DNA of 36,551 bases from Escherichia coli (GTDB taxonomy: Bacteria; Pseudomonadota; Gammaproteobacteria; Enterobacterales; Enterobacteriaceae), in NCBI RefSeq assembly GCF_003334765.1, contig NZ_QOWT01000037.1. The stretch is one strand, 5' to 3'. Shown here piece after piece: positions 1 through 36,551 of this stretch (positions are counted from its first letter, which is position 1; each line of letters starts with the position of its first letter). The notes below the pieces were generated by a model. The model ran no database searches. It was not told the origin of the DNA and was given only the letters and a program-made list of their open reading frames with translations. The position numbers and the translations under genes are program-made.

Positions 1-928
1 TAAGCGTAACCGACAGGTTCTCCTTCATACCATATTAAATTTTTCCAGGTATTGCCGCTGCCTTATTTCGTCCCATAAAGGAAAACTCATCTGGGTTTCT
101 GACAAATACGCGAAACTCACAGCCCCTCAATATCAACCACACGTTGTAAGCCGGTAATACCTGAAAATCAGCCTATTACCGCCCACGCCTCCGGCACCAT
201 TCCCTTTTGATTTCGAATTCTTTGTTGTCGCTATACCGCTTAATGTTCCCGGTCCTCCGGTGCAGATAACACCGGACTTATCGTAGCGCTGGCTAAAAGT
301 TCAGGTGACCAGAAGGAAGCAGGAACACGATCGTAAAGTTTGCGGTCAGTTCCGTCAGTCGGTGGGCAACCGCAGAGTTACGGGCTTCCAGGTCCACAGG
401 AGTGAGTCTATAACGCGTGTGAAAAATCATTTTTTCTGGCGTTGACAGAACACATTACAGGCTGCCACTTACCCGGTGTCCCGCAATACAGCCTTAGTGT
501 TCCGTTATCGGGGATCCGGACGCACCGCAACAACCGGGGAAGTATTTCTGGTTTAGAGCTGTGTCAAGAGGGATTTCTCAGCCCCTCACTCACCGGCTCA
601 GTCTCAGAGCAGGAGCATTAATACGCTCAGTTCATGTCTTATACAGGAATGGGCACAGGGGGAGCTGGCGTGTCACTGCTGATTTTACGCATCAGCGTTC
701 ATGTATTTGCACTCTGATACATGAACGATTCACAGCGCTCTGTTACCGGAGAGATTTACTCTCTTAGCTTACTCTGGCAAATCCTTTACGTTACTCTCTG
801 ATGACTTCTTATATTTATAATACCAATCAGACAGCCTTATCCCATCGGTGATACCGAAGCCGGTCTGCGCGCCGGCTGACCCGTCATCGTTAAACTATCA
901 TTCACCGATTTTCTGTGAGGATTTTATC

Positions 929-1297
929 GTGTCAGACACACTTTCCGGGACAACGCATCCCGATGACAATGACGACCATCCCTGGTGGGGACTACCCTGC
1001 ACAGTGACGCCCTGTTTCGGCGCCCGTCTGGTGCAGGAGGGTAACCGCCTGCATTACCTTGCCGACCGCGCCGGTATCAGAGGCCTGTTCAGCGATGCAG
1101 ATGCGTACCACCTGGACCAGGCCTTTCCGCTGCTGATGAAACAACTGGAACTCATGCTCACCAGCGGTGAACTGAATCCCCGCCATCAGCATACCGTCAC
1201 GCTGTATGCAAAAGGTCTGACCTGCAAAGCTGACACTCTCGGTAGCGGTGGTTACGTTTATCTGGCTGTTTATCCGACGCCCGAAACGAAAAAGTAA
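929..1297 (+). CDS. CbeA/YeeU/YfjZ-family antitoxin of a type IV toxin-antitoxin pair
   Basis: ORF 848..1297 translation contains [37 protein letters not shown]..., typical of the YeeU/CbeA family (about 122 aa). In-frame GTG at 929 gives VSDTLSGTT... and a 122-aa product; the ATG at 848 would add a 27-aa extension. Paralog cannot be assigned. Confidence 0.8.
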
Positions 1298-1386
1298 ACC
1301 ACCGGAATAACCTTCTGCTCCGGCCTGGTGCTTTCACCACGCCACTTTTCCATTTTTCATCTCTGCATATCAGGAAAACCTTCAGT

Positions 1387-1761
1387 ATGAAAACATTACC
1401 CGATACACACGTACGGGAGGCATCGAGCTGCCCGTCTCCCGTCACCATCTGGCAGACTCTGCTCTCCCGACTACTGGGCCAGCATTACGGCCTTACACTG
1501 AATGACACACCGTTCGCCGATGAACGTGTGATTGAGCAGCATATTGAAGCTGGCATTTCACTGTGTGATGCGGTGAATTTTCTCGTGGAAAAATACGCGC
1601 TGGTGCGTACCGACCAGCCGGGATTCAGCACTTGTCCCCGCTCTCAGTTAATAAACAGTATTGATATCCTCCGGGCTCGCAGGGCGACCGGCCTGATGAC
1701 CCGCGACAATTACAGAACGGTAAATAACATTACCCTGGGTAAGCATCCGGAGAAACGATGA
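1387..1761 (+). CDS. CbtA/YeeV/YpjF/YkfI-family toxin (cytoskeleton-targeting, inhibits FtsZ/MreB)
   Basis: 124-aa [11 protein letters not shown]...[52 protein letters not shown]... matches the CbtA toxin family as recalled; sits directly downstream of the antitoxin gene. Confidence 0.85.
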
Positions 1762-2246
1762 AACTTTCCCTGATGCTGGAAGCCGACAGAATTAATGTGC
1801 AGGCACTGAACATGGGGCGAATTGTCGTTGACGTCGATGGTGTTAATCTCACTGAACTGATTAACAAGGTCGCTGAAAACGGTTATTCACTCCGCGTGGT
1901 GGAGGAATCCGACCAACAGTCAACCTGCACACTACCACCGTTTGCAACCCTTGCCGGCATACGCTGCAGTACCGCACATATCACGGAAAAGGATAACGCC
2001 TGGCTGTACTCGCTGTCGCATCAGACCAGTGACGTTGGTGAATCAGAATGGATTCATTTCACAGGTAGCGGATATCTGTTACGTACCGATGCGTGGTCAT
2101 ATCCGGTTCTGCGGCTTAAACGCCTGGGGCTGTCAAAAACGTTCCGTCGTCTGGTTATCACACTTACCCGACGTTATGGCGTCAGTCTCATTCATCTGGA
2201 TGCCAGCGCTGAATGCCTGCCGGGTTTACCCACTTTCAACTGGTAA
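1758..2246 (+). CDS. YeeW-like cryptic-prophage protein
   Basis: 162-aa ORF whose start overlaps the toxin stop (ATGA at 1758-1761); position and sequence are consistent with the yeeW-type gene that follows cbtA in CP4-like elements. Confidence 0.6.
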
Positions 2247-2257
2247 CCAGGAACAAC

Positions 2258-2455
2258 ATGAAATCATTAACCACGGAAACCGCACTGGATATTCTGATTG
2301 CGTGGCTGCAGGACAATATCGACTGCGAATCGGGAATTATCTTTGACAACAATGAGGATAAAACGGATTCAGCAGCACTGTTGCCCTGTATCGAACAGGC
2401 CAGAGAGGATATCCGTACCCTGCGCCAACTGCAGCTTCAGCACCAGAACCGGTGA
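2258..2455 (+). CDS. small hypothetical prophage-associated protein (65 aa)
   Basis: ATG at 2258 preceded by aggaac; product MKSLTTETALDILIAWLQDNIDCESG...; the longer ORF-track start at 2213 overlaps the upstream gene. Family not assigned. Confidence 0.4.
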   Translation: MKSLTTETALDILIAWLQDNIDCESGIIFDNNEDKTDSAALLPCIEQAREDIRTLRQLQLQHQNR

Positions 2456-2932
2456 GTCTTACTCACCAGACTTCATTCCACTGACGCCAGCCTGAACAGG
2501 GCTGGCATTTTCATTTATCTGCAAAAAGGAATATCGATTATGTCTGATATCACAGCCTACCGTCCGGAAGTGGTCAACGAGAATACGGACGTTATCTGCT
2601 CAACCAGCATCCGCCGCATTCTGGCTGTACGAAAGAGTTCACTGCTGCAAATCGACACAATTATCCGGCATCAAGTGAGCGATATCAGTTAACAGATATA
2701 GATGGAGAAGATGCTTTTATCCGGATTGGTTCTATCGCGATGGTGCGAGTACTACTTGATGCAATGAAGCCTGTCGAGGAAGATGACGAGTAACAGAGCT
2801 CGGTATCTCAATCAGGAGCTGATTGTCCTGGTTCGATGCCGAAAACCAGTGATTTTTCGTGTTGGTATCTGTGTTGGTATAAGATGATATTGTTTATTAT
2901 TAACAATTTTAAATCATGAGGTTAAGTCACAT

Positions 2933-2970
2933 GTTTGAGTCCGGCCTTCGCACCTTCGCACCTTCGCACC
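2933..2970. repeat. tRNA-Leu (leuX) 3'-end-like segment followed by 3 tandem copies of cttcgcac; probable island att remnant
   Basis: tttGAGTCCGGCCTTCGCACC resembles the T-arm/acceptor end of tRNA-Leu(CAA) as I recall it (GGTTCGAGTCCGGCCTTCGGCACCA); the 8-mer cttcgcac repeats at 2946-2953, 2954-2961 and 2962-2969. Confidence 0.5.
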
Positions 2971-3172
2971 ATCGGAACATCAATAGACATCAACGGACGT
3001 TTTTTTATGACTGAAATCCGCGCCACACAAGGCTTTTCGCTATTTTTCGCTCAACCTAAGTCAACCTACATCAACTTACTGATGTGGATACAGCTACAGC
3101 TGCGGCTATACCCCGATTCGATAATGTTTGTACCCACACAAAACCCTTGAAAGGCTACAAGGCTGAAATTGT

Positions 3173-3657
3173 CTAAACCATAGAGATGATTTTTATGATC
3201 CAGTCTTTCTCTTGTTGAGATAGTTCCAGTTTGCTCACTCGTGTTAAGAAGGTATTGATCACCTGAACATCCGAATTGGTGAGCCTATTTAATAGAGCGG
3301 GTGGTATACCTTTACTAACAATCGCTTTGCGGTGACTTTCGTAGTTTTTATTACTCATTGTTGATCCTAAAAAATCATTGTATGGCGGCATTGATCGTTT
3401 CCAGCAACCTTTACTTACTCACTTCGAACTGCATCCTCGTAGACAGTTCCACTACAATAATCGAAAAGGCGCGGATGTCCATTCAGGTATCCCGCTAATA
3501 CGTATAGCAATAACAATGGCTTATGCGGCGCGCGCTGTTCACCCTTGTGCCAGATTTTTATATTGGCAATTGCCTGCTGTAGCGATTTACTGGAAGCTAT
3601 TGATATCCCTGGCAGTGAAATAATTGCGATCATGCTCGCAAATTTTCTGCTGTTCAA
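3173..3657 (-). pseudogene. frameshifted gene of unknown function
   Basis: Two same-strand ORFs (3415..3657 and 3173..3391). The downstream frame is open from 3418, immediately after the upstream stop at 3415-3417, so a single frameshift in the ttacttactc tract would fuse them into a protein of about 160 aa. Confidence 0.35.
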
Positions 3658-3736
3658 GCCTGCAAGTGAAGATATATTACCTTGATCTCATTTGTTTTTT
3701 TGCTGCCTGTTCTGAGAACGTATAAGGACATTCTCC

Positions 3737-4387
3737 ATGAATAAACTCCCTGATCATCTTCCGCGGCGGTATATCATCGAAGCTATCCATTTATGGGATG
3801 CGGGAGAAACTCATCAGTTCCAGCCTGCGCGGTTGTATGAGATTGAATATCATGGCCGACGTTACCCCTCGAAGGCGATTGCTGGCATCGCAGCGACATT
3901 GATGACGGGGACGCAATTTACCCCTGCGGATTTCACCGGCGGAATAAAATCTAAATGTGTCAAGCTACTCATAGAGCAGGGATTTCATATTCATCTGGAT
4001 AAAGCCGCTGCGGCTCCCATAGCCGACGTTCTGTTCCCGGATGAGTTGCCGTCGCAGGAGACATACCTTGAAGGTGCGGCGATAAAGGTGACAGTAAACC
4101 GCTATGAACGCGATAAAAAGGCCCGAGATAAAGCGGTCGAACATCATGGATGCCAGTGCAACGTATGCGGTGTTGATCTGGTGAAGATCTATGGTGATAT
4201 CGCTGAAGGCTTTATCCATGTGCATCACCTGGTGCCGCTGTCAGCCATTAAAGAGGATTACCAGCTGGATCCAGTTAATGATTTGCTGCCTGTGTACCCT
4301 AATTGCCATGCGATGTTGCACCGACGCAAACCACCGTTTACGCCGGGGCAGTTAAAAGCGCTGATGGATGCGAATAAATCAAATTAA
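3737..4387 (+). CDS. HNH endonuclease, McrA-like C-terminal nuclease domain with an unassigned ~100-aa N-terminal domain
   Basis: 216-aa ORF; the C-terminus has HHGCQCNVCG...IHVHHLVPLS...YPNCHAMLH, a classic HNH (beta-beta-alpha-Me) motif resembling the McrA nuclease domain. aggaca lies upstream of the ATG. Confidence 0.7.
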   Translation: MNKLPDHLPRRYIIEAIHLWDAGETHQFQPARLYEIEYHGRRYPSKAIAGIAATLMTGTQFTPADFTGGIKSKCVKLLIEQGFHIHLDKAAAAPIADVLFPDELPSQETYLEGAAIKVTVNRYERDKKARDKAVEHHGCQCNVCGVDLVKIYGDIAEGFIHVHHLVPLSAIKEDYQLDPVNDLLPVYPNCHAMLHRRKPPFTPGQLKALMDANKSN

Positions 4388-4394
4388 TGAACGC

Positions 4395-5375
4395 TCACCT
4401 TTCGCGCCAAAACTGCAAAATTGCTTCTACAAACTTGTCAGAAATAATCCCCCGACGGGCTGCCGTGCTGAAATGACTGCTTCGCAGTGCCGTCGTCCAG
4501 TTCTCCGGTGACCGGTACGCTGAACCGTAATATCCCGTGCTTAAATCGTCCGGGTCTTCATCAGGCGCGTTCGTCAGTCCTCTTTCACCTTGTTGCTGGA
4601 AGTCGACGAAAATAATATTGGCTAAAACATTATTTTGATAATTGCCATAAATAACTTCATACGCATGAGGGAAATTTTCTTTCCAGTACCAGGTGGTATC
4701 GCCGCAAAACCACGGTGCGTCAGTAATATTATTAAGCTGAGAATGGTATTGTTTTAGATCCCTACGAAAGGCTTCAACCATATGATTAAAGTGTTGAGGG
4801 TGTGACGCGTAGTCACTGGTCATTAAGTCAAATTCGCCTTGCATCCAGCATACGCCGAGGAATTTGTTATGCGGATTTTTTGCCAGTGCGGCTCGCGTTC
4901 TGCTGACTAAATCCTGGTATAGCGGAGTATCCGTTCCCCAACGACAAGCATCATGGCTGGCTCCGTGCCGTTCTGAATATGTCCCTTCGCTGCCCGCGGT
5001 AAAAGCCGATCCGCCACGGCAACACGGAACGATGAGAACCCCTGCATTATCAGGAATAAAGGGCAGTAATTTCCGTGCTATATGCAGTGCCTGGCCAACG
5101 GTGCCGTACTGTGTTTGATGATTCGTTGCCAGAGGATGGTGATAACCCTGCATATCCTGAACATCGTGTGGGCAGTGAGTCAGTGGAATAATGTCGTTAA
5201 AGTGACATGACGGGCCTCCGGGATGCGTATGCGCAAATCTCGCTAATTGTTTAATTCTGGGATGAGGCGCATCTTCCCTGTCCGGTAATGGCAGTCCTTC
5301 GCCATACGCCATGGCATTAGACTGACCAGCAACGGTAAGAATATAGTAATAATCAGGCGATATTATTGCGTTCAT
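4395..5375 (-). CDS. nanS: 9-O-acetyl-N-acetylneuraminate esterase
   Basis: ORF 4395..5402 matches NanS/YjhS; start placed at the internal ATG (MNAIISPDYYYILTVAGQSNA...) for a 326-aa product. Confidence 0.9.
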   Translation of the reverse strand: MNAIISPDYYYILTVAGQSNAMAYGEGLPLPDREDAPHPRIKQLARFAHTHPGGPSCHFNDIIPLTHCPHDVQDMQGYHHPLATNHQTQYGTVGQALHIARKLLPFIPDNAGVLIVPCCRGGSAFTAGSEGTYSERHGASHDACRWGTDTPLYQDLVSRTRAALAKNPHNKFLGVCWMQGEFDLMTSDYASHPQHFNHMVEAFRRDLKQYHSQLNNITDAPWFCGDTTWYWKENFPHAYEVIYGNYQNNVLANIIFVDFQQQGERGLTNAPDEDPDDLSTGYYGSAYRSPENWTTALRSSHFSTAARRGIISDKFVEAILQFWRER

Positions 5376-5439
5376 ATAAATTTCGCGTAATTGAAATGAC
5401 AAATTGATAGCAGGGCCCCTTTACCGGGGCCCTGAAGCG

Positions 5440-6546
5440 TTAGTTTTGTACTGTGACTTTATTATCCTTCACAGAAATTAAAACTGAATCCATCACTGCT
5501 TTGCCGCCTGCAGTTTCACCGCCAATAATTAATAAACTATTATTCCAGGGCAATGATACTCCGTAGGCCCGACCTTGCGATAATTCACCCGATTTATCCC
5601 ATTTCCCGTTATACCAAAGATGAATATCAGCGCTATATGATTTTTTCAGGCCTTCATGCGCATAGTTCTTACCGTTCTGGTAATTTTCTCGTGAACCTTT
5701 GAATCCGGCCCCTCCAGCAAATATAAGAGAATCATTGCTTATCCCCGCAAAACCGCCAGCGACGCCATCTGGTGATGAGACGGGATCAAGCTTATTCCAT
5801 TTTAAATTATCACCGGTGAAGTCAAGTTCAAATACGGCATCCGTTCGCAATCCTGGTTTGGCTTCGCCATTAATAAGCCAGGTTTTATCACCTTTATTCA
5901 CAACCGCCGCACCAGCCGTTCCGTACCAGGGAGATTCGCCAGCGTAACTCCATTGCTGTGTTGAGGGATCAAAAGACAACAGAAACTTATTGAAGAAATA
6001 ATCTTCTGCTTTTTTGTCAAAATAGTAGGCGTTGATTTTATCTATAGCGGTTGAATCTTTTCCAGCTTCGTTGAGATCTTCAAAATAGCCATTGAAGATA
6101 TTCTGGTTAACACCGCCAGTAACATAAGCCTTGCCGTTGTGTACAAAAGTCACATGGCCCGCCATGCCCATCGGCGCGTGCGACATCAATTTAACCCAGC
6201 TATTGGTTTTGGGGTTGTATTTGTGTACGTCATTAAATACCTGAGTCAAGCCCTCGCTGTTTTTGCCAATGCCGCCAAACACATACAGATTGCCATCAAT
6301 AAATGCAGAGGTTGCTTGATCTCTCGGTCCGCCAGGGAATGCAGCTAACGCTGTCCATCTTTTATCTTTGGCCTGTGTATCCAGCTTGTACCATGCCGTA
6401 CCTGCGCTACCTAAACCAATGTAGACAGTGTCGTTATCAATTGCTCCGGTACCACTTTTAAATGGCACAGGAGTTTCCGGTAATACAGACGCGTTTGCGG
6501 CAAATGAAGCCATTATGATAGTAAGCGCCGTTATTGTTTTATTCAT
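5440..6546 (-). CDS. nanM: N-acetylneuraminate mutarotase (Kelch-repeat periplasmic protein)
   Basis: ORF 5440..6654 matches NanM/YjhT; start placed at MNKTITALTIIMASFAANA (signal peptide) for 368 aa. Confidence 0.9.
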   Translation of the reverse strand: MNKTITALTIIMASFAANASVLPETPVPFKSGTGAIDNDTVYIGLGSAGTAWYKLDTQAKDKRWTALAAFPGGPRDQATSAFIDGNLYVFGGIGKNSEGLTQVFNDVHKYNPKTNSWVKLMSHAPMGMAGHVTFVHNGKAYVTGGVNQNIFNGYFEDLNEAGKDSTAIDKINAYYFDKKAEDYFFNKFLLSFDPSTQQWSYAGESPWYGTAGAAVVNKGDKTWLINGEAKPGLRTDAVFELDFTGDNLKWNKLDPVSSPDGVAGGFAGISNDSLIFAGGAGFKGSRENYQNGKNYAHEGLKKSYSADIHLWYNGKWDKSGELSQGRAYGVSLPWNNSLLIIGGETAGGKAVMDSVLISVKDNKVTVQN

Positions 6547-6565
6547 TGTGACTGTCTCCTGTCTA

Positions 6566-7282
6566 CTACAGTTTAAATGACACACCAATGCGATAACTGT
6601 TTTCCGATAAATTATCTCTGCCGTTGTAAACACCCTGACGGTCAAGGTAGTCATATTCTATGTATGGCGTAATATCGGGCGTCATATGGTATTGTAGAAC
6701 AAATGCATTTTCCGTCGCCCATTTCTTATGGTTTGCATAGCGATAATCGTTCTGTTTACTGTATAGCGTCGTTTGCCATGCGAAGGTGAAATCACTATTA
6801 ATATGGTAAGTGACATATCCATCCCAACGATGAACGTTATCACGAGACATATCACCAGATAAGTCTTGTTGTCGGTAAGCTTTCCAGTCGTAACGATAGC
6901 GAATGCCAAAATTAAGATCTTTTGTCGCGTCCCAGGACAGTTTTACGTAGGGTCCGTAGCGTGTGCCATTGCTGCTAAAATGCGTTAACATTCCCGGGCG
7001 CACCGTCCATTGATCATCAAGTTTAATCGCGTAATTAACTTCAACCTGAACATCATTGAGTGCGGCATTTTCCTTTTTATTATCATGAATGGTATTCCAG
7101 GTATTACTTTCCATGCTTGCCCACCATCCATTTTGCCATCCCTCACTGACTTTGAGTCGAGTCTCATAGGCGTGGCTTCCACTACGATATCCACCACGTA
7201 CGTCCAGTGTCGCAGCCTGAGAAATTAATGGGGACGAAAAGCACAGTAATAATACGCTAGAAAGTATTTTAGCCTTTTTCAT
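6566..7282 (-). CDS. nanC: N-acetylneuraminic acid outer-membrane channel (KdgM family)
   Basis: ORF 6566..7291 matches NanC/YjhA (MKKAKILSSVLLLCFSSPLISQAATLDVRGGYRSG...); ATG at 7282 chosen, GTG at 7291 is an alternative. Confidence 0.9.
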   Translation of the reverse strand: MKKAKILSSVLLLCFSSPLISQAATLDVRGGYRSGSHAYETRLKVSEGWQNGWWASMESNTWNTIHDNKKENAALNDVQVEVNYAIKLDDQWTVRPGMLTHFSSNGTRYGPYVKLSWDATKDLNFGIRYRYDWKAYRQQDLSGDMSRDNVHRWDGYVTYHINSDFTFAWQTTLYSKQNDYRYANHKKWATENAFVLQYHMTPDITPYIEYDYLDRQGVYNGRDNLSENSYRIGVSFKL

Positions 7283-7707
7283 AAATTTCACTCATTTGTA
7301 GGATACAGAAAGCAATACAAAGCCCGCATAAACAATTAGCATTTATGTTGTGTAATATTTTTTTGCCAGACTTATAGTGTCTTTGGCAACCGGTAGCTGT
7401 ATTTTATATTTTTTGTATAATATCTCCTGTGAAAAATCTCTTTCCACATTATTTAAATAAACAGAGGGCCAGATTAAATACCTGAGTATAAAATCTCTGC
7501 TGATGTTTAATTGATTTGAATTTTCGTAAGCTATATCGCTTACTCAATCCATTTTACCCAGAGTCATAAAATAGAGTGTCTGTTGATCTCATTTTCATAT
7601 TCCTTTCAGACTGAAGTGCGTTTTCATCACCCGATGAGAAAGAACTGAAGTGATGTTTGCCATAGATTACGAGATGCCCAGTCTCATTGACTATCGCGGT
7701 GCACCTT

Positions 7708-7722
7708 TATACCTGTTATACC
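7708..7722. promoter_or_regulatory. NanR operator (GGTATA repeats) with adjacent Dam GATC site
   Basis: tatacctgttatacc is the reverse complement of GGTATAACAGGTATA; GATC follows at 7724-7727. It lies about 420 bp upstream of nanC and about 1 kb upstream of fimB, matching the known NanR site controlling nanC and fimB. Confidence 0.7.
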
Positions 7723-8735
7723 AGATCAAAAATCACGCAATCCATACAACAAAACCAGATTTGCAATTCGTGTCACAAAATATGTCGATCTTTTCCTAAG
7801 AAGCAGATGCCATGTGAAGACAGACGAACACTTGCATTGGTCTTCAAAAACTAAAGGTTTTCTTTTAACAATCTGTTTTGTAAATAATTTATTTAGAATC
7901 TAAACAAAGAAAGCTTTGCAAGCTAACTCAGTGAGCTTGGTGAAAATAAGTGTTTACCCGCCATCAGGCTGAGTATAATTCTCATCATGAAATATGTTTC
8001 TTGGTTTGTGGCTTGTAACTGGTCACTCCTGATGTCGATCTGGAGAGGCTTGTTGATGTTGGTGTTTTCAGGATGATGTTTCACTTAGTTTGTTTGCCGT
8101 ATCGCCCGGCGAATAGCTGTGATTGAGGAAGGTTTAAGTCGTAGTGACCAAAGCCATAGTTACCAACGGATGTAGATGAAAAAGCGTCGCCTGCGTTCCC
8201 CCATATCTCCAGGATAAAAGGGAATGTAACAATCTCATGGCCTAAGCTGACGAACCAGGCAGGAATAATCGCTAGGGATCTAAGAATTAGCATGATAATA
8301 GCCACTAAAAAATTACTGCGTTCCATGAAATAGCCATTTTGTGGCAAATGCAGTTGACTAATAATGTCATATGTGAGACGGCTAGTTGAACGAATATTAA
8401 ATTTTGCTGAATTTTTTATGTTGATTTTACTTGTTACAGAACATATCACATGATATATAGATAAGATTAGTTGCATTAATGATGAGGGTTATTATTCGAT
8501 TCGTATCAGATTTATAAATATATAAAGGTACATAGCATGCAAGAGCATGGCGTTTGTATGGCAAAGTTATTATAAGTAACTATCGCTACTCCATTTAAGT
8601 TCACTCAGAAGAACTGGTCCACTTACGTTAGTTATTAAGCAAACGTTCGCTTTTATAAACATAATCAGGATTAAAATGTTGGATTATTGCTAACCCAGCA
8701 CAGCTAGTGCGCGTCTGTAATTATAAGGGAAAACG

Positions 8736-9338
8736 ATGAAGAATAAGGCTGATAACAAAAAAAGGAACTTCCTGACCCATAGTGAAATCGAATCACTCCT
8801 TAAAGCAGCAAATACCGGGCCTCATGCAGCACGTAATTATTGTCTGACTTTGCTTTGTTTTATTCATGGTTTCCGGGCGAGTGAAATTTGTCGATTGAGG
8901 ATTTCGGATATTGATCTTAAGGCAAAGTGTATCTATATCCATCGATTAAAAAAAGGCTTTTCAACAACGCACCCGCTATTGAACAAAGAAGTTCAGGCTT
9001 TAAAAAACTGGTTGAGTATCCGTACTTCGTACCCGCATGCTGAGAGCGAATGGGTATTTTTATCGCGTAAGGGGAATCCGCTTTCTCGGCAACAGTTTTA
9101 CCATATTATCTCGACTTCCGGTGGTAATGCCGGGTTGTCACTGGAGATTCATCCGCACATGTTACGCCATTCGTGTGGTTTTGCTTTGGCGAATATGGGA
9201 ATAGATACGCGACTTATCCAGGATTATCTTGGGCATCGCAATATTCGTCATACTGTCTGGTATACCGCCAGCAATGCAGGGCGTTTTTACGGCATCTGGG
9301 ATAGGGCCAGAGGACGACAGCGTCACGCTGTTTTATAG
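8736..9338 (+). CDS. fimB: type 1 fimbriae switch recombinase FimB (tyrosine recombinase, ON<->OFF)
   Basis: 200-aa ORF MKNKADNKKRNFLTHSEIESLLKAANTG... with C-terminal RHSCGF...LGHRNIRHTVWYT recombinase motifs. Confidence 0.95.
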   Translation: MKNKADNKKRNFLTHSEIESLLKAANTGPHAARNYCLTLLCFIHGFRASEICRLRISDIDLKAKCIYIHRLKKGFSTTHPLLNKEVQALKNWLSIRTSYPHAESEWVFLSRKGNPLSRQQFYHIISTSGGNAGLSLEIHPHMLRHSCGFALANMGIDTRLIQDYLGHRNIRHTVWYTASNAGRFYGIWDRARGRQRHAVL

Positions 9339-9814: not shown

Positions 9815-10411
9815 GTGAGTAAACGTCGTTATCTTACCGGTAAAGAAGTTCAGGCCATGATGCAGGCGGTTTGTTACGGGGCAACGGGAGCCAGAGATTA
9901 TTGTCTTATTCTGTTGGCATATCGGCATGGGATGCGTATTAGTGAACTGCTTGATCTGCATTATCAGGACCTTGACCTTAATGAAGGTCGAATAAATATT
10001 CGCCGACTGAAGAACGGATTTTCTACCGTTCACCCGTTACGTTTTGATGAGCGTGAAGCCGTGGAACGCTGGACCCAGGAACGTGCTAACTGGAAAGGCG
10101 CTGACCGGACCGACGCTATATTTATTTCTCGCCGCGGGAGTCGGCTTTCTCGCCAGCAGGCCTATCGCATTATTCGCGATGCCGGTATTGAAGCTGGAAC
10201 CGTAACGCAGACTCATCCTCATATGTTAAGGCATGCTTGCGGTTATGAACTGGCGGAGCGTGGTGCAGATACCCGTTTAATTCAGGATTATCTCGGGCAT
10301 CGAAATATTCGCCATACTGTGCGTTATACCGCCAGTAATGCTGCTCGTTTTGCCGGATTATGGGAAAGAAATAATCTTATAAACGAAAAATTAAAAAGAG
10401 AAGAGGTTTAA
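9815..10411 (+). CDS. fimE: type 1 fimbriae switch recombinase FimE (ON->OFF biased)
   Basis: 198-aa ORF (V)SKRRYLTGKEVQAMMQAV... with GTG start at 9815; paralogous to FimB. Confidence 0.95.
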   Translation: MSKRRYLTGKEVQAMMQAVCYGATGARDYCLILLAYRHGMRISELLDLHYQDLDLNEGRINIRRLKNGFSTVHPLRFDEREAVERWTQERANWKGADRTDAIFISRRGSRLSRQQAYRIIRDAGIEAGTVTQTHPHMLRHACGYELAERGADTRLIQDYLGHRNIRHTVRYTASNAARFAGLWERNNLINEKLKREEV

Positions 10412-10458
10412 TTTAACTTATTGATAGTAAAGGTAAAAAACAAATAAATACAAGACAA

Positions 10459-10772
10459 TTGGGGCCAAAACTGTCCATATCATAAATAAGTTACGTATTT
10501 TTCTCAAGCATAAAAATATTATAAAACGACAAAAAGCATCTAACTGTTTGATATGTAAATCATTTCTCTTGTAAATTAATTTCACATCACCTCCGCTAAA
10601 TGTAAAGCTAACGTTTCTGTGTCTCGAAGCAACTTCCTCATTCTTCTCTCCAAAAACCACCTCATGCAATATAAAAATCTATAAATAAAGATAACAATAG
10701 AATATAAAGCCAACAAATAAACTGAAAAAGTTTGTGCGCGATGCTTTCCTCTATGAGTCAAAATGGCCCCAA
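10459..10772. promoter_or_regulatory. fimS: fimS invertible phase-variation element (314 bp) flanked by 9-bp inverted repeats; phase-OFF as sequenced
   Basis: TTGGGGCCA at 10459-10467 and its reverse complement TGGCCCCAA at 10764-10772 lie exactly 314 bp apart, between fimE and fimA. Confidence 0.85.
10479..10507 (-). promoter_or_regulatory. fimA sigma-70 promoter inside fimS, oriented toward fimE
   Basis: On the minus strand: -35 TTGAGA (10507-10502), 17-bp spacer, -10 TATGAT (10484-10479), next to the fimE-proximal inverted repeat. No comparable promoter is seen on the plus strand near the fimA-proximal repeat. Confidence 0.6.
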
Positions 10773-10891
10773 ATGTTTCATCTTTTGGGGGGAAACTGTG
10801 CAGTGTTGGCAGTCAAACTCGTTGACAAAACAAAGTGTACGGAACGACTGCCCATGTCGATTTAGAAATAGTTTTTTGAAAGGAAAGCAGT

Positions 10892-11446
10892 ATGAAAATT
10901 AAAACTCTGGCAATTGTTGTTCTGTCGGCTCTGTCCCTGAGTTCTACAGCGGCTCTGGCTGAAACTACACCCACGACGGTAAATGGTGGGACCGTTCACT
11001 TTAAAGGGGAAGTTGTTAACGCCGCTTGCGCAGTTGATGCAGGCTCTGTTGATCAAACCGTTCAGTTGGGCCAGGTTCGTACCGCTAGTCTGAAGCAGAC
11101 TGGAGCAACCAGCTCTGCTGTCGGTTTTAACATTCAGCTGAATGATTGCGATACCAGTGTTGCCACAAAAGCCGCTGTTGCCTTCTTGGGGACTGCGATT
11201 GACAGTGCTCATCCTAAAGTACTGGCTCTGCAGAGTTCAGCTGCGGGTAGCGCAACAAATGTTGGTGTGCAGATACTGGACAGAACAGGAAATGAGCTGA
11301 CGCTGGACGGTGCGACATTTAGTGCACAAACAACCCTGAATAACGGTACCAACACCATTCCGTTCCAGGCGCGTTATTATGCAATCGGCGAGGCAACCCC
11401 GGGTGCTGCTAATGCGGATGCGACCTTCAAGGTTCAGTATCAATAA
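10892..11446 (+). CDS. fimA: type 1 fimbrial major subunit (pilin)
   Basis: 184-aa ORF with signal peptide [23 protein letters not shown] and C-terminal ...ATFKVQYQ; aggaaag upstream. Confidence 0.95.
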
Positions 11447-11510
11447 CCTACCCAGGTTCAGGGACGTCATTACGGGCAGAGATGCCCACCCTTGTGCGAT
11501 AAAAATAACG

Positions 11511-12050
11511 ATGAAAAGGAAGAGATTATTTCTATTAGCGTCGTTGCTGCCAATGTTTGCTCTGGCCGGAAATAAATGGAACACCACGCTGCCCGGCGGA
11601 AATATGCAATTTCAGGGCGTCATTATTGCGGAAACTTGCCGGATTGAAGCCGGTGATAAACAAATGACGGTCAATATGGGGCAAATCAGCAGTAACCGGT
11701 TTCATGCGGTAGGGGAAGATAGCGCACCGGTGCCTTTTGTTATTCATTTACGGGAATGTAGCACGGTGGTGAGTGAACGTGTGGGTGTGGCGTTTCACGG
11801 TGTCGCGGATGGTAAAAATCCAGATGTGCTTTCCGTGGGAGAGGGGCCAGGGATAGCCACCAATATTGGCGTAGCGTTGTTTGATGATGAAGGAAACCTC
11901 GTACCGATTAATCGTCCTCCAGCAAACTGGAAACGGCTTTACTCAGGCTCTACTTCGCTACATTTCATCGCCAAATATCGTGCTACCGGGCGTCGGGTTA
12001 CTGGCGGCATCGCCAATGCCCAGGCCTGGTTCTCTTTAACCTATCAGTAA
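11511..12050 (+). CDS. fimI: type 1 fimbrial protein FimI
   Basis: ORF 11379..12050; start placed at ATG 11511 ([19 protein letters not shown]...) for 179 aa; the longer ORF would overlap the fimA 3' end. Confidence 0.85.
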
Positions 12051-12086
12051 TTGTTCAGCAGATAATGTGATAACAGGAACAGGACA

Positions 12087-12812
12087 GTGAGTAATAAAAA
12101 CGTCAATGTAAGGAAATCGCAGGAAATAACATTCTGCTTGCTGGCAGGTATCCTGATGTTCATGGCAATGATGGTTGCCGGACGCGCCGAAGCGGGAGTG
12201 GCCTTAGGTGCGACTCGCGTAATTTATCCGGCAGGGCAAAAACAAGTGCAACTTGCCGTGACAAATAATGATGAAAATAGCACCTATTTAATTCAATCAT
12301 GGGTGGAAAATGCCGATGGTGTAAAGGATGGTCGTTTTATCGTGACGCCACCTCTGTTTGCGATGAAGGGAAAAAAAGAGAATACCTTACGTATTCTTGA
12401 TGCAACAAATAACCAATTGCCACAGGATCGGGAAAGTTTATTCTGGATGAACGTTAAAGCGATTCCGTCAATGGATAAATCAAAATTGACTGAGAATACG
12501 CTACAGCTCGCAATTATCAGCCGCATTAAACTGTACTATCGCCCGGCTAAATTAGCGTTGCCACCCGATCAGGCCGCAGAAAAATTAAGATTTCGTCGTA
12601 GCGCGAATTCTCTGACTCTGATTAACCCGACACCCTATTACCTGACGGTAACAGAGTTGAATGCCGGAACCCGGGTTCTTGAAAATGCATTGGTGCCTCC
12701 AATGGGCGAAAGCACGGTTAAATTGCCTTCTGATGCAGGAAGCAATATTACTTACCGAACAATAAATGATTATGGCGCACTTACCCCCAAAATGACGGGC
12801 GTAATGGAATAA
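12087..12812 (+). CDS. fimC: periplasmic pilus chaperone
   Basis: 241-aa ORF with GTG start; PapD-like chaperone sequence (…GVALGATRVIYPAGQKQVQLAVTNND…). Confidence 0.95.
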   Translation: MSNKNVNVRKSQEITFCLLAGILMFMAMMVAGRAEAGVALGATRVIYPAGQKQVQLAVTNNDENSTYLIQSWVENADGVKDGRFIVTPPLFAMKGKKENTLRILDATNNQLPQDRESLFWMNVKAIPSMDKSKLTENTLQLAIISRIKLYYRPAKLALPPDQAAEKLRFRRSANSLTLINPTPYYLTVTELNAGTRVLENALVPPMGESTVKLPSDAGSNITYRTINDYGALTPKMTGVME

Positions 12813-12878
12813 CGCAGGGGGAATTTTTCGCCTGAATAAAAAGAATTGACTGCCGGGTGATTTTAAACCGGAGGAATA

Positions 12879-15515
12879 ATGTCATATCTGAATTTAAGAC
12901 TTTACCAGCGAAACACACAATGCTTGCATATTCGTAAGCATCGTTTGGCTGGTTTTTTTGTCCGGCTCTTTGTCGCCTGTGCTTTTGCCGCACAGGCACC
13001 TTTGTCATCTGCCGAACTCTATTTTAATCCGCGCTTTTTAGCGGATGATCCCCAGGCTGTGGCCGATTTATCGCGTTTTGAAAATGGGCAAGAATTACCG
13101 CCAGGGACGTATCGTGTCGATATCTATTTGAATAATGGTTATATGGCAACGCGTGATGTCACATTTAATACGGGCGACAGTGAACAAGGGATTGTTCCCT
13201 GCCTGACACGCGCGCAACTTGCAAGTATGGAGCTGAATACGGCTTCTGTCTCCGGTATGAATCTGCTGGCGGATGATGCCTGCGTGCCATTAACCTCAAT
13301 GATCCATGACGCTACTGCGCATCTGGATGTTGGTCAGCAGCGACTCAACCTGACGATCCCTCAGGCATTTATGAGTAATCGCGCGCGTGGTTATATTCCT
13401 CCTGAGTTATGGGATCCTGGTATTAATGCCGGATTGCTCAATTATAATTTCAGCGGAAATAGTGTACAGAATCGGATTGGGGGTAACAGCCATTATGCAT
13501 ATTTAAACCTACAGAGTGGGTTAAATATTGGTGCGTGGCGTTTACGCGACAATACCACCTGGAGTTATAACAGTAGCGACAGTTCATCAGGTAGCAAAAA
13601 TAAATGGCAGCATATCAATACCTGGCTTGAGCGAGACATAATTCCGTTACGTTCCCGGCTGACGCTGGGTGATGGTTATACCCAGGGCGATATTTTCGAT
13701 GGTATTAACTTTCGCGGCGCACAATTGGCCTCAGATGACAATATGTTACCCGATAGCCAAAGAGGATTTGCTCCGGTGATCCACGGTATTGCTCGTGGTA
13801 CTGCACAGGTCACTATTAAACAAAATGGGTATGACATTTATAATAGTACGGTGCCGCCGGGGCCTTTTACCATCAACGATATCTATGCCGCAGGTAATAG
13901 TGGTGACTTGCAGGTAACGATTAAAGAGGCTGACGGCAGCACGCAGATCTTTACCGTACCCTATTCGTCAGTCCCGCTTTTGCAACGTGAAGGGCATACT
14001 CGTTATTCCATTACGGCAGGAGAATACCGTAGTGGAAATGCGCAGCAGGAAAAACCCCGCTTTTTCCAGAGTACATTACTCCACGGCCTTCCGGCTGGCT
14101 GGACAATATATGGTGGAACGCAACTGGCGGATCGTTATCGTGCGTTTAATTTCGGTATCGGGAAAAACATGGGGGCACTGGGCGCTCTGTCTGTGGATAT
14201 GACGCAGGCTAATTCCACACTTCCCGATGACAGTCAGCATGACGGACAATCGGTGCGTTTTCTCTATAACAAATCGCTCAATGAATCAGGCACGAATATT
14301 CAGTTAGTGGGTTACCGTTATTCGACCAGCGGATATTTTAATTTCGCTGATACAACATACAGTCGAATGAATGGCTACAACATCGAAACACAGGATGGTG
14401 TTATTCAGGTTAAGCCGAAATTCACCGACTATTACAATCTCGCTTATAACAAACGCGGGAAATTACAACTCACCGTTACTCAGCAACTCGGGCGCACATC
14501 AACACTGTATTTGAGTGGTAGCCATCAAACTTATTGGGGAACGAGTAATGTCGATGAGCAATTCCAGGCTGGTTTAAATACTGCATTCGAAGATATCAAC
14601 TGGACGCTCAGCTATAGCCTGACGAAAAACGCCTGGCAAAAAGGACGGGATCAGATGTTAGCGCTTAACGTCAATATTCCTTTCAGCCACTGGCTGCGTT
14701 CTGACAGTAAATCTCAGTGGCGACATGCCAGTGCCAGTTACAGCATGTCACACGATCTCAACGGTCGGATGACCAATCTGGTCGGTGTATACGGTACGTT
14801 GCTGGAAGACAACAACCTCAGCTATAGCGTGCAAACCGGTTACGCCGGGGGAGGTGATGGTAATAGCGGAAGTACAGGCTACGCCACGCTGAATTATCGC
14901 GGTGGTTACGGCAATGCCAACATCGGTTACAGCCATAGCGATGATATTAAGCAGCTCTATTACGGAGTCAGCGGTGGGGTACTGGCTCATGCCAATGGCG
15001 TAACGCTGGGGCAGCCGTTAAACGATACGGTGGTGCTTGTTAAAGCGCCTGGCGCAAAAGATGCAAAAGTCGAAAACCAGACGGGGGTGCGTACCGACTG
15101 GCGCGGTTATGCCGTGCTGCCTTATGCCACTGAATATCGGGAGAACAGAGTAGCGCTGGATACCAATACCCTGGCTGATAACGTCGATTTAGATAACGCG
15201 GTCGCTAACGTTGTTCCCACCCGTGGGGCGATCGTGCGAGCAGAGTTTAAAGCGCGCGTTGGGATAAAACTGCTCATGACGCTAACCCACAATAATAAGC
15301 CGCTGCCGTTTGGGGCGATGGTGACATCAGAGAGTAGCCAGAGTAGCGGCATTGTTGCGGATAATGGTCAGGTTTACCTCAGCGGAATGCCTTTAGCGGG
15401 AAAAGTTCAGGTGAAATGGGGAGAAGAGGAAAATGCTCACTGTGTCGCCAATTATCAACTGCCACCAGAGAGTCAGCAGCAGTTATTAACTCAGCTATCA
15501 GCTGAATGTCGTTAA
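12879..15515 (+). CDS. fimD: outer-membrane fimbrial usher
   Basis: 878-aa ORF; ggagg upstream; usher-family sequence in the expected position. Confidence 0.95.
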   Translation: MSYLNLRLYQRNTQCLHIRKHRLAGFFVRLFVACAFAAQAPLSSAELYFNPRFLADDPQAVADLSRFENGQELPPGTYRVDIYLNNGYMATRDVTFNTGDSEQGIVPCLTRAQLASMELNTASVSGMNLLADDACVPLTSMIHDATAHLDVGQQRLNLTIPQAFMSNRARGYIPPELWDPGINAGLLNYNFSGNSVQNRIGGNSHYAYLNLQSGLNIGAWRLRDNTTWSYNSSDSSSGSKNKWQHINTWLERDIIPLRSRLTLGDGYTQGDIFDGINFRGAQLASDDNMLPDSQRGFAPVIHGIARGTAQVTIKQNGYDIYNSTVPPGPFTINDIYAAGNSGDLQVTIKEADGSTQIFTVPYSSVPLLQREGHTRYSITAGEYRSGNAQQEKPRFFQSTLLHGLPAGWTIYGGTQLADRYRAFNFGIGKNMGALGALSVDMTQANSTLPDDSQHDGQSVRFLYNKSLNESGTNIQLVGYRYSTSGYFNFADTTYSRMNGYNIETQDGVIQVKPKFTDYYNLAYNKRGKLQLTVTQQLGRTSTLYLSGSHQTYWGTSNVDEQFQAGLNTAFEDINWTLSYSLTKNAWQKGRDQMLALNVNIPFSHWLRSDSKSQWRHASASYSMSHDLNGRMTNLVGVYGTLLEDNNLSYSVQTGYAGGGDGNSGSTGYATLNYRGGYGNANIGYSHSDDIKQLYYGVSGGVLAHANGVTLGQPLNDTVVLVKAPGAKDAKVENQTGVRTDWRGYAVLPYATEYRENRVALDTNTLADNVDLDNAVANVVPTRGAIVRAEFKARVGIKLLMTLTHNNKPLPFGAMVTSESSQSSGIVADNGQVYLSGMPLAGKVQVKWGEEENAHCVANYQLPPESQQQLLTQLSAECR

Positions 15516-15524
15516 GGGGGCGTG

Positions 15525-16055
15525 ATGAGAAACAAACCTTTTTATCTTCTGTGCGCTTTTTTGTGGCTGGCGGTAAGTCACGCTTTGGCTGCGGATAGCA
15601 CGATTACTATCCGCGGCTATGTCAGAGATAACGGCTGTAGTGTGGCCGCTGAATCAACCAATTTTACTGTTGATCTGATGGAAAACGCGGCGAAGCAATT
15701 TAACAACATTGGCGCGACGACTCCTGTCGTTCCATTTCGTATTTTGCTGTCACCCTGTGGTAATGCCGTTTCTGCCGTAAAAGTTGGGTTTACCGGTGTT
15801 GCAGATAGCCACAATGCCAACCTGCTTGCACTTGAAAATACGGTGTCAGCGGTTGCGGGACTGGGAATACAGCTTCTGAATGAGCAACAAAATCAGATAC
15901 CCATTAATGCCCCATCGTCCGCGATTTCGTGGACGACCCTGACGCCGGGTAAACCAAATACGCTGAATTTTTACGCCCGGCTAATGGCGACACAGGTGCC
16001 TGTCACTGCGGGGCATATCAATGCCACGGCTACCTTCACTCTTGAATATCAGTAA
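15525..16055 (+). CDS. fimF: type 1 fimbrial minor subunit (adaptor)
   Basis: ORF 15522..16055; ATG at 15525 (MRNKPFYLL...) gives 176 aa; pilin-like C-terminus ...TFTLEYQ. Confidence 0.9.
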
Positions 16056-16067
16056 CTGGAGAGGCTC

Positions 16068-16571
16068 ATGAAATGGTGCAAACGTGGGTATGTATTGGCG
16101 GCAATATTGGCGCTCGCAAGTGCGACGATACAGGCAGCCGATGTCACCATCACGGTGAACGGTAAGGTCGTCGCCAAACCGTGCACGGTTTCCACCACCA
16201 ATGCCACGGTAGATCTCGGCGATCTTTATTCTTTCAGTCTGATGTCTGCCGGGGCGGCATCGGCCTGGCATGATGTTGCGCTTGAGTTGACTAATTGTCC
16301 GGTGGGAACGTCGAGGGTCACTGCCAGCTTCAGCGGGGCAGCCGACAGTACCGGATATTATAAAAACCAGGGGACCGCGCAAAACATCCAGTTAGAGCTA
16401 CAGGATGACAGTGGCAACACATTGAATAGTGGCGCAACCAAAACAGTTCAGGTGGATGATTCCTCACAATCAGCGCACTTCCCGTTACAGGTCAGAGCAT
16501 TGACGGTAAATGGCGGAGCCACTCAGGGAACCATTCAGGCAGTGATTAGCATCACCTATACCTACAGCTGA
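16068..16571 (+). CDS. fimG: type 1 fimbrial minor subunit (adaptor)
   Basis: 167-aa ORF MKWCKRGYVLAAILALASATIQA... Confidence 0.95.
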   Translation: MKWCKRGYVLAAILALASATIQAADVTITVNGKVVAKPCTVSTTNATVDLGDLYSFSLMSAGAASAWHDVALELTNCPVGTSRVTASFSGAADSTGYYKNQGTAQNIQLELQDDSGNTLNSGATKTVQVDDSSQSAHFPLQVRALTVNGGATQGTIQAVISITYTYS

Positions 16572-16590
16572 AGCCGAAGAGATGATTGTA

Positions 16591-17493
16591 ATGAAACGAG
16601 TTATTAACCTGTTTGCTGTACTGCTGATGGGCTGGTCGGTAAATGCCTGGTCATTCGCCTGTAAAACCGCCAATGGCACCGCTATCCCTATTGGCGGTGG
16701 CAGCGCCAATGTTTATGTAAACCTTGCGCCCGCCGTGAATGTGGGGCAAAACCTGGTCGTGGATCTTTCGACGCAAATCTTTTGCCATAACGATTACCCG
16801 GAAACCATTACAGATTATGTCACACTGCAACGAGGCTCGGCTTATGGCGGCGTGTTATCTAATTTTTCCGGGACCGTAAAATATAGTGGCAGTAGCTATC
16901 CATTTCCGACCACCAGTGAAACGCCGCGGGTTGTTTATAATTCGAGAACGGATAAGCCGTGGCCGGTGGCGCTTTATTTGACGCCTGTGAGCAGTGCGGG
17001 CGGGGTGGTGATTAAAGCTGGCTCATTAATTGCCGTGCTTATTTTGCGACAGACCAACAACTATAACAGCGATGATTTCCAGTTTGTGTGGAATATTTAC
17101 GCCAATAATGATGTGGTGGTGCCCACTGGCGGCTGCGATGTTTCTGCTCGTGATGTCACCGTTACTCTGCCGGACTACCCTGGTTCAGTGCCGATTCCTC
17201 TTACCGTTTATTGTGCGAAAAGCCAAAACCTGGGGTATTACCTCTCCGGCACAACCGCAGATGCGGGCAACTCGATTTTCACCAATACCGCGTCGTTTTC
17301 ACCTGCACAGGGCGTCGGCGTACAGTTGACGCGCAACGGTACGATTATTCCAGCGAATAACACGGTATCGTTAGGAGCAGTAGGGACTTCGGCGGTAAGT
17401 CTGGGATTAACGGCAAATTACGCACGTACCGGAGGGCAGGTGACTGCAGGGAATGTGCAATCGATTATTGCCGTGACTTTTGTTTATCAATAA
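16591..17493 (+). CDS. fimH: type 1 fimbrial adhesin (mannose-binding lectin)
   Basis: ORF 16582..17493; ATG at 16591 (MKRVINLFAVLLMGWSVNAWS FACKTANGTAIPIGGG...) gives 300 aa. Confidence 0.95.
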   Translation: MKRVINLFAVLLMGWSVNAWSFACKTANGTAIPIGGGSANVYVNLAPAVNVGQNLVVDLSTQIFCHNDYPETITDYVTLQRGSAYGGVLSNFSGTVKYSGSSYPFPTTSETPRVVYNSRTDKPWPVALYLTPVSSAGGVVIKAGSLIAVLILRQTNNYNSDDFQFVWNIYANNDVVVPTGGCDVSARDVTVTLPDYPGSVPIPLTVYCAKSQNLGYYLSGTTADAGNSIFTNTASFSPAQGVGVQLTRNGTIIPANNTVSLGAVGTSAVSLGLTANYARTGGQVTAGNVQSIIAVTFVYQ

Positions 17494-27251: not shown

Positions 27252-27713
27252 TTAAACAATAAGCTGCATAACCCAGATCGACAGCAATGCGTTAATCACG
27301 CAGACCGTAATGATATGCGGGTAATATTTGGCATTCACTTCGGCTGTCCCCAGGCAGCGACCGACATTTTGCACCGGGTTGCCCATTAAATACATCGCGG
27401 GCAGTAAAACGGTGACATCGTGACCGGTTAATGCGCCAGCGGTTGCCAGACTGGCGGCAACACCGACTGCGCCACCCATACTCATTAATGCGGCTAAAAG
27501 GACGGTTGCCGCTTCACCGGGTAATCCCCACAGCGCCATTACGGGTTCACAGATATGCCCCACCCAGTCGAGCAGGCCGGTAATTTTCAGCGCCTGAATG
27601 ATGACAAACGCCATCACCACGTTTGGCAGCAGGTTGGTCGTGGCGATAGTAAAGCCACGGCGCGCACCATCGATAAACATATCCATGACGTTTTTGCGGA
27701 CCTGAGTTGTCAT
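27252..27713 (-). CDS. yjiG: inner-membrane protein YjiG (SpmB-like)
   Basis: 153-aa hydrophobic ORF; its stop lies 12 bp before the iadA start; overlaps the yjiH stop by 4 bp. Confidence 0.9.
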   Translation of the reverse strand: MTTQVRKNVMDMFIDGARRGFTIATTNLLPNVVMAFVIIQALKITGLLDWVGHICEPVMALWGLPGEAATVLLAALMSMGGAVGVAASLATAGALTGHDVTVLLPAMYLMGNPVQNVGRCLGTAEVNAKYYPHIITVCVINALLSIWVMQLIV

Positions 27714-28393
27714 GCTTGCGCTCCTTGCGTTGGGTTGCGACGTTCTTCGAAGTTAAGCCAGACGCGCAAAATGTTGGCTCCGACAAATTTAAACACCAGG
27801 ATGACTGCTAAAGGTACGATTACGGACGTGCCCAGAAAGGCAAACACCGCGACGCCGGAAGAGAAGTAGTTGGTGATAATGGCGCTACCGCTGGTTTGAT
27901 ATGCGGCGAAAATCACTTTATCGCGTTCGGTAATTTCACCTTCCTGCGCCAGCTCTTTGGTCATACCTGCGGCGGCATCGGTGTTTTGCAGGTTAGCGAT
28001 CAGCGCCAGCGAGCAGATCCCTGGAATGCCCAACAACGGTTTTAGCACTGGCGTCATTAACTGCTGCGCGGCGCGTAATCCGCCAAGACCATCGGTAATT
28101 GAAATAATCCCCAGAGAGAGAATGACTGACGGTGCCAGCTCCAGCGCAAAGAGAAAGCCATCTTTAGCCCCCGCGCCACCCGCGCCGCGAAACGAGGTGG
28201 TGGCTCCGTTCGCACCAGGCAGTTGCCCAAACGATCCGTTCAGAACGGAAAAATCAAAAACGCGCCACCAACTGTCTGTCCCGGAAAAAACACCGGAAAA
28301 AAAGATTATGGTGAGAAAAAAAGCCAGATACCCTTTAATGCCCACTTTTTCTGTCGCCAGCTCCCCGGCTACAGCATCCCCTTGTTGTGTCAT
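27710..28393 (-). CDS. yjiH: inner-membrane protein YjiH (nucleoside-recognition/SpmA-like)
   Basis: ORF 27710..28405; ATG at 28393 (MTQQGDAVAGELATEKVG...) chosen for about 227 aa. Confidence 0.85.
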   Translation of the reverse strand: MTQQGDAVAGELATEKVGIKGYLAFFLTIIFFSGVFSGTDSWWRVFDFSVLNGSFGQLPGANGATTSFRGAGGAGAKDGFLFALELAPSVILSLGIISITDGLGGLRAAQQLMTPVLKPLLGIPGICSLALIANLQNTDAAAGMTKELAQEGEITERDKVIFAAYQTSGSAIITNYFSSGVAVFAFLGTSVIVPLAVILVFKFVGANILRVWLNFEERRNPTQGAQA

Positions 28394-28642
28394 AACAATC
28401 CCCATTGTTTTTTTGTGTTTGTGTGTTGCTTGAGCCAGGAAAATTCCTGGAGCTGAAAAACCTTATCAGCCATGTGGGTATGGGGAAAATGCAAGTATGT
28501 TTCTGACTATGCGTTTTTTGCATAGCGGTAAAATTACGCTGTGTGGAAAAGGTTCTACGCAGGATTGAGTTGCAGAAAATTCATAAACCCAGTGACAATG
28601 ACATAGTAAATAAAAAACAGATAATCCAGGGACGAAAACGCG

Positions 28643-36232: not shown

Positions 36233-36551
36233 TAAGCCTTTACCAAAATGGTTATTCATCGTTCACCTTATTCGCTATATATCGCCATATATAGCGATGT
36301 TTTAGGCAAAGAACGACTTTTGCGCACGCTATTTTTTCATGCTTGTTTAAGACGTAATCCCGTAAGAGATAAACCTATCAGGAGAGATATTTATCAAACC
36401 ATTTCAGTGTCCTTTGCCAGGCAAGATCGGCGGCAGATTTGTCATAACGGGGCGTGGAATCATTATGGAATCCGGGTAATGCTGCCAACTTACTGATTTA
36501 GTGTATGATGGTGATTTTAAGGTGCTTGCGTGGCTTCCATTTCCATCAGAT

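Follow-up and report, generated by a model that had tools for sequence, protein, structure and literature searches.

The fim switch (fimS) in the 36,551-nucleotide stretch of Escherichia coli DNA that we analysed (hereafter, the window) is almost certainly in phase OFF. The first-pass annotation, which was made from the sequence alone, had read this orientation from the direction of a single promoter, and our analysis agrees with that call, as the promoter direction, the BstUI and HinfI patterns, a 135-bp primer product and the collinearity with strains MG1655 and UTI89 all point the same way.

The fim locus and its switch

The window holds a complete fimB-fimE-fimS-fimAICDFGH locus, with fimS in the 480-bp intergenic region that separates fimE from fimA and with gntP and uxuAB downstream of the operon (Table 1). 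Both FimB and FimE score above the cutoffs of the NCBIfam models for tyrosine-type DNA invertases. FimA and the 182-aa FimA of K-12 agree at 165 residues, and the version in the window has a 2-aa insertion that follows the signal peptide region; its divergence, while the neighbouring FimB and FimE are those of K-12, is in line with the diversifying selection known to act on fimA (PMC6458436).

The published definition of the fim switch is an element of 314 bp with the 9-bp repeats 5'-TTGGGGCCA (PMC8777976), and both this length and these repeats are found at 10459-10772. The repeat occurs exactly twice in the 36.5-kb window, where 0.35 matches would be expected by chance, and its two copies form a perfect inverted pair. 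The repeat search thus bears out the exact coordinates at which an invertible element had previously been proposed. Placing the mutagenic primer FBSFOR2 by eye positions the core that was mutated in an earlier study, CCAACAAAT, at 10710-10718 (PMC9993118).

Table 1. Positions of the fim genes, the switch and its internal markers in the window
Feature	Position	Strand	Description
fimB	8736..9338	+	200-aa ORF; 100% identical to MG1655 FimB; NCBIfam NF007370, 458 bits (cutoff 221)
fimE	9815..10411	+	198-aa ORF, GTG start; 100% identical to MG1655 FimE; NCBIfam NF007371, 452 bits (cutoff 222)
fimS invertible element	10459..10772		314 bp, bounded by two inverted repeats; almost certainly phase OFF as sequenced
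IRL, fimE-proximal 9-bp inverted repeat	10459..10467	+	TTGGGGCCA; repeat sequence as in PMC8777976
PfimA	10479..10507	-	-35 TTGAGA 10507-10502, 17-bp spacer, -10 TATGAT 10484-10479; points toward fimE
SnaBI site	10492..10497		TACGTA, inside the promoter spacer; orientation marker
C-rich, G-poor tract	10619..10678	+ (fimE-sense)	candidate Rho-utilisation region; 12-14 C versus 1-4 G per 40-nt window
Fis/LRP-2 binding region	10695..10730	+	near the fimA-proximal end; by-eye placement of primer FBSFOR2 (PMC9993118)
BstUI site	10737..10740		CGCG, unique; orientation marker between LRP-2 and IRR in OFF (PMC9993118)
HinfI site	10755..10759		GAGTC; orientation marker (PMC4349694)
IRR, fimA-proximal 9-bp inverted repeat	10764..10772	-	reverse complement of TTGGGGCCA
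fimA	10892..11446	+	major type 1 fimbrial subunit; 184-aa ORF; NCBIfam NF011741, 187 bits (cutoff 140)
fimI, fimC, fimD, fimF, fimG, fimH	11511..17493	+	all ORFs present; from the ORF list and the AF58 annotation shifted by 9701 bases

Over its first 30.9 kb, the window matches the chromosome of E. coli AF58, a blood-culture isolate from the UK, at 99.997% identity; the annotation of AF58 confirms the gene order, and its fimS has the same orientation. The sole difference between the two over these 30.9 kb is at position 28303, where the window has A7 and AF58 has A6. This position lies inside yjiH (ORF 27710-28405, minus strand), which is intact in the window (231 aa) and annotated as frameshifted in AF58, and a homopolymer error in either sequence probably accounts for the difference. 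Upstream of nanC-fimB, positions 1-8700 hold mobile-element debris, assigned by offset from the AF58 annotation, including a yeeU/cbtA toxin-antitoxin pair, genes for DUF5983 and DUF957 proteins, an HNH endonuclease and a truncated sialate O-acetylesterase, and the last 77 bases (36475-36551) match a copy of IS1F. In MG1655, the sRNA FimR2 is annotated just 3' of fimA, and the equivalent stretch of the window is 11447-11510; no Rfam family reached its gathering threshold anywhere in the window.

Orientation of the switch

As the promoter direction rests on a consensus match, we also tested the OFF call against published orientation diagnostics. In the assay of the Dorman laboratory, BstUI digestion of the 726-bp product of primers OL20 and OL4 yields fragments of 539 and 187 bp in OFF and of 433 and 293 bp in ON (PMC9993118), and the same amplicon taken from the window was cut in silico into 539 and 187 bp. 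A second assay, in which the product of primers Phase_L and Phase_R is digested with HinfI, reports a band of 359 bp for OFF and of 489 bp for ON (PMC4349694). This digest, which the first-pass annotation had suggested as a check, was run here in silico and gave the OFF pattern, with fragments of 358 and 201 bp; deviations of 1-5 bp from the published HinfI bands are due to indels of the allele. A third diagnostic comes from primers BSFORBIO, located inside the switch, and BSREVBIO, located outside it on the fimA side, which face each other in the window and delimit a product of 135 bp (10657-10791), the published size. In the source paper, the 135-bp probe covers the Fis/LRP-2 region, and the phase shown in its Fig. 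2 is OFF (PMC9993118).

Comparison with reference genomes gave the same answer. The region is collinear with MG1655, and the alignment with uropathogenic E. coli (UPEC) UTI89 runs plus/plus over the whole 314 bp at 94.9% identity, with 2 gaps and the same architecture; UTI89 has an 18-bp promoter spacer, and its reference genome is stated to carry fimS in OFF (PMC6458436). An alignment had been proposed to see whether the orientation in the window equals the published ON sequence, and it does not, the window being collinear with the OFF references.

The PfimA promoter and its spacer

Within 10300-10950, a scan for sequence matches to the sigma-70 consensus gave TTGAGA-17-TATGAT as the best match (10/12), with three others inside the element that each reach 9/12. 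This fits the earlier claim of a single strong, minus-strand promoter in the element, beside the fimE-proximal repeat, while the total of four sites is close to that of AT-rich shuffles (1.9 ± 1.4). The PfimA segment is conserved in every E. coli locus that was compared, and minus-strand transcription would begin near 10472; published work locates PfimA within fimS (PMC2647292). A literature search on the promoter hexamers returned no relevant papers.

The claim for this promoter has to be qualified by its 17-bp spacer, which is specific to the allele in the window and sets it apart from the 18-bp K-12 allele used for classic mapping. The spacer is 17 bp (T5) here versus 18 bp (T6) in MG1655, UTI89, GE3, RM12761 and EC5, with the T tract at 10498-10502 (spacer stretch 10485-10502) and an A tract at 10468-10471, directly inside IRL. 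The latter has one more A than in K-12 (A4 versus A3), which compensates for T5, so that the element stays at 314 bp. In GE3, RM12761 and EC5, the closest relatives of the allele, the element is 315 bp long, and lengths of 312-315 bp are found across public assemblies.

A query with the exact 44-nt promoter segment, which includes the 17-bp spacer, found it in 509 of the 4101 matching genomes, among them Nissle 1917 and ST131 strains. With this promoter-limited query we rejected the idea that the 17-bp allele is rare, for which the candidate evidence was an exact 72-mer found in 41 genomes. The assembly of C600, a K-12 derivative, also carries the 17-bp spacer, suggesting that some cases may be homopolymer errors, and the 17-bp spacer may be either a common variant or partly such an artefact. 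We consider it conceivable, though doubtful, that the lengths of the T tract and of the A tract at IRL are a real polymorphism at the level of lineages, possibly tuning promoter strength or the switching bias of FimB and FimE. If true, strains that are alike in their OFF orientation would differ in the strength or frequency of fimbriation. A literature search on PfimA spacer polymorphism found nothing relevant, which does not show that it is undescribed.

Transcription in the OFF phase

Transcription from PfimA crosses IRR and enters fimA in the ON phase, and in the OFF phase it crosses IRL and heads for the 3' end of fimE (PMC2647292). In the window, PfimA beside the fimE-proximal repeat would fire toward fimE and thereby leave fimAICDFGH without a promoter; in the orientation sequenced, no promoter of its own points toward fimA. 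The dominant cells in the sequenced DNA would thus be non-fimbriate. Inversion of the element is expected to proceed by recombination within the 9-bp repeats, mediated by FimB in both directions and by FimE from ON to OFF.

The switch may also act on fimE itself. A Rho-dependent terminator in fimS shortens and destabilises the fimE mRNA, and does so in OFF only (PMC2647292; PMC9993118). We propose that in OFF the C-rich strand of the element would be read as a continuation of the fimE mRNA and would act as this terminator. Here, promoter function, recombinase directionality and the terminator are taken from the literature, whereas the repeats, the promoter match and the gene context were located in the window. 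The promoter and terminator positions follow reviews, and the tract at 10619-10678 is a candidate for the Rho-utilisation region that was reportedly described by Hinde et al. 2005. The presence of this C-rich tract on the fimE-sense strand is consistent with OFF-specific Rho termination (PMC2647292). For the PfimA-driven antisense transcript that would run across fimE, no intrinsic terminator was found on the minus strand, and a literature search on such a transcript from PfimA gave no support.

Frequency of the two orientations among E. coli genomes

A 601-bp sequence that spans the switch was compared, both as sequenced and with the element flipped in silico, with 5426 complete E. coli genomes. 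The region was held by 4720 genomes, with the orientation of the window in 4457 and the flipped orientation in 248, that is, ~95% OFF and ~5% ON among the complete genomes with the region. This survey provides a baseline for orientation calls. JJ1887 (ST131, NZ_CP014316.1), with a fimS of 312 bp in ON, is one of the ~5% minority.

Insertions next to the switch were also seen. In EC5 (NZ_CP060969.1, locus 263-1030) and about nine other top matches, an IS1A lies between the fimE stop codon and IRL and separates fimE from the switch; most such genomes are OFF, and one (strain 126, H28) is ON.

Between the window and MG1655, the 9-bp repeats, the length of 314 bp, the position between fimE and fimA, the orientation and the FimB and FimE proteins are alike, with a mean column identity of 98% over an aligned stretch of 501 bp, while ~12 substitutions inside the element, the spacer (18 versus 17 bp) and the FimA allele differ. 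The Salmonella hin switch, the flgB and cwpV switches of Clostridioides difficile and the invertons of Bacteroides are likewise segments with a promoter or terminator that lie between inverted repeats and are flipped by a site-specific recombinase (PMC2784873; PMC5386303). Their recombinases and repeats differ, whereas the window carries the fim system itself.

Alternative readings of the assembled orientation

An assembly could record an arbitrary orientation, if the DNA held a substantial mixture of ON and OFF and one of the two states was selected during assembly or polishing. Populations are naturally mixed at fimS, and libraries can hold both orientations (PMC6458436). However, the element is only 314 bp long and is spanned by reads and read pairs, so that the majority state determines the consensus; both states appear among public assemblies (4457 OFF and 248 ON), which argues against assemblers forcing one orientation; and AF58, whose chromosome is nearly identical, shows the orientation of the window. 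We therefore regard an arbitrary orientation as unlikely. The first-pass annotation had concluded that the sequenced clone or population was switched OFF, and this stands for the majority orientation; since an assembly gives the majority only, a minority ON subpopulation is possible.

The switch could also be genetically locked in OFF, as it is in O157:H7 through a deletion in fimS, in fimB-null strains and in EPEC E2348/69. Locked-OFF strains do exist (PMC9096935; PMC6458436), switching cannot be shown by a single assembly, and the additional A of this allele lies directly inside IRL, where the recombinases bind. Against this, the element has its full length between two perfect 9-bp repeats, and FimB and FimE each match their functional K-12 counterparts at 100% identity; neither a deletion in fimS, nor damaged repeats, nor a disruption of a recombinase gene was found in the window. 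Furthermore, in strains H3 (NZ_CP028732.1) and HSP425 (NZ_CM136999.1) the same fimE-fimS-fimA allele, flanks included, is found at 100% identity over 601 bp with the element in ON and PfimA facing fimA. An identical allele in the opposite orientation demonstrates that inversion has occurred in nature with this sequence. A locked switch is thus very improbable, and we infer that the strain still switches.

That the orientation is really ON, with the promoter strand or the reference orientation mis-assigned by the earlier reader, has a negligible probability, because MG1655 and UTI89, the OFF references, align collinearly with the window and the published ON patterns come from the flipped sequence (BstUI, 293 and 433 bp; HinfI, 75 and 484 bp, versus the 489-bp ON band); support for this reading was sought and none was found, and nothing contradicts OFF.

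Phase OFF as the default state

Inversion by FimB occurs at low frequency and either way, whereas FimE has a strong preference for the ON-to-OFF direction (PMC2647292; PMC9096935; PMC2845655). FimE drives the switch from ON to OFF and dominates over FimB (PMC2647292; PMC9096935). This preference and dominance of FimE leave most wild-type cells non-piliated (PMC2647292; PMC9096935; PMC2845655). With fimE intact, and FimE acting from ON to OFF and dominant, OFF is the expected default.

It had been suggested that the OFF orientation may reflect FimE-biased growth conditions. This is overstated: OFF is what an intact fimE leads one to expect and was found in 4457 of the 4720 genomes with the region, so that the orientation carries no particular information on growth conditions. 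It should be noted that the adhesion phenotype is not readable from an assembly alone, and the practical value of the orientation call is small. Based on our findings, we suggest that OFF in the window represents the default equilibrium of a fimE-positive strain, which is the ordinary state of a textbook system and is already known. Since fimB, fimE, both repeats and the structural operon are all undamaged, we expect that this strain could produce fimbriae once the switch has inverted.
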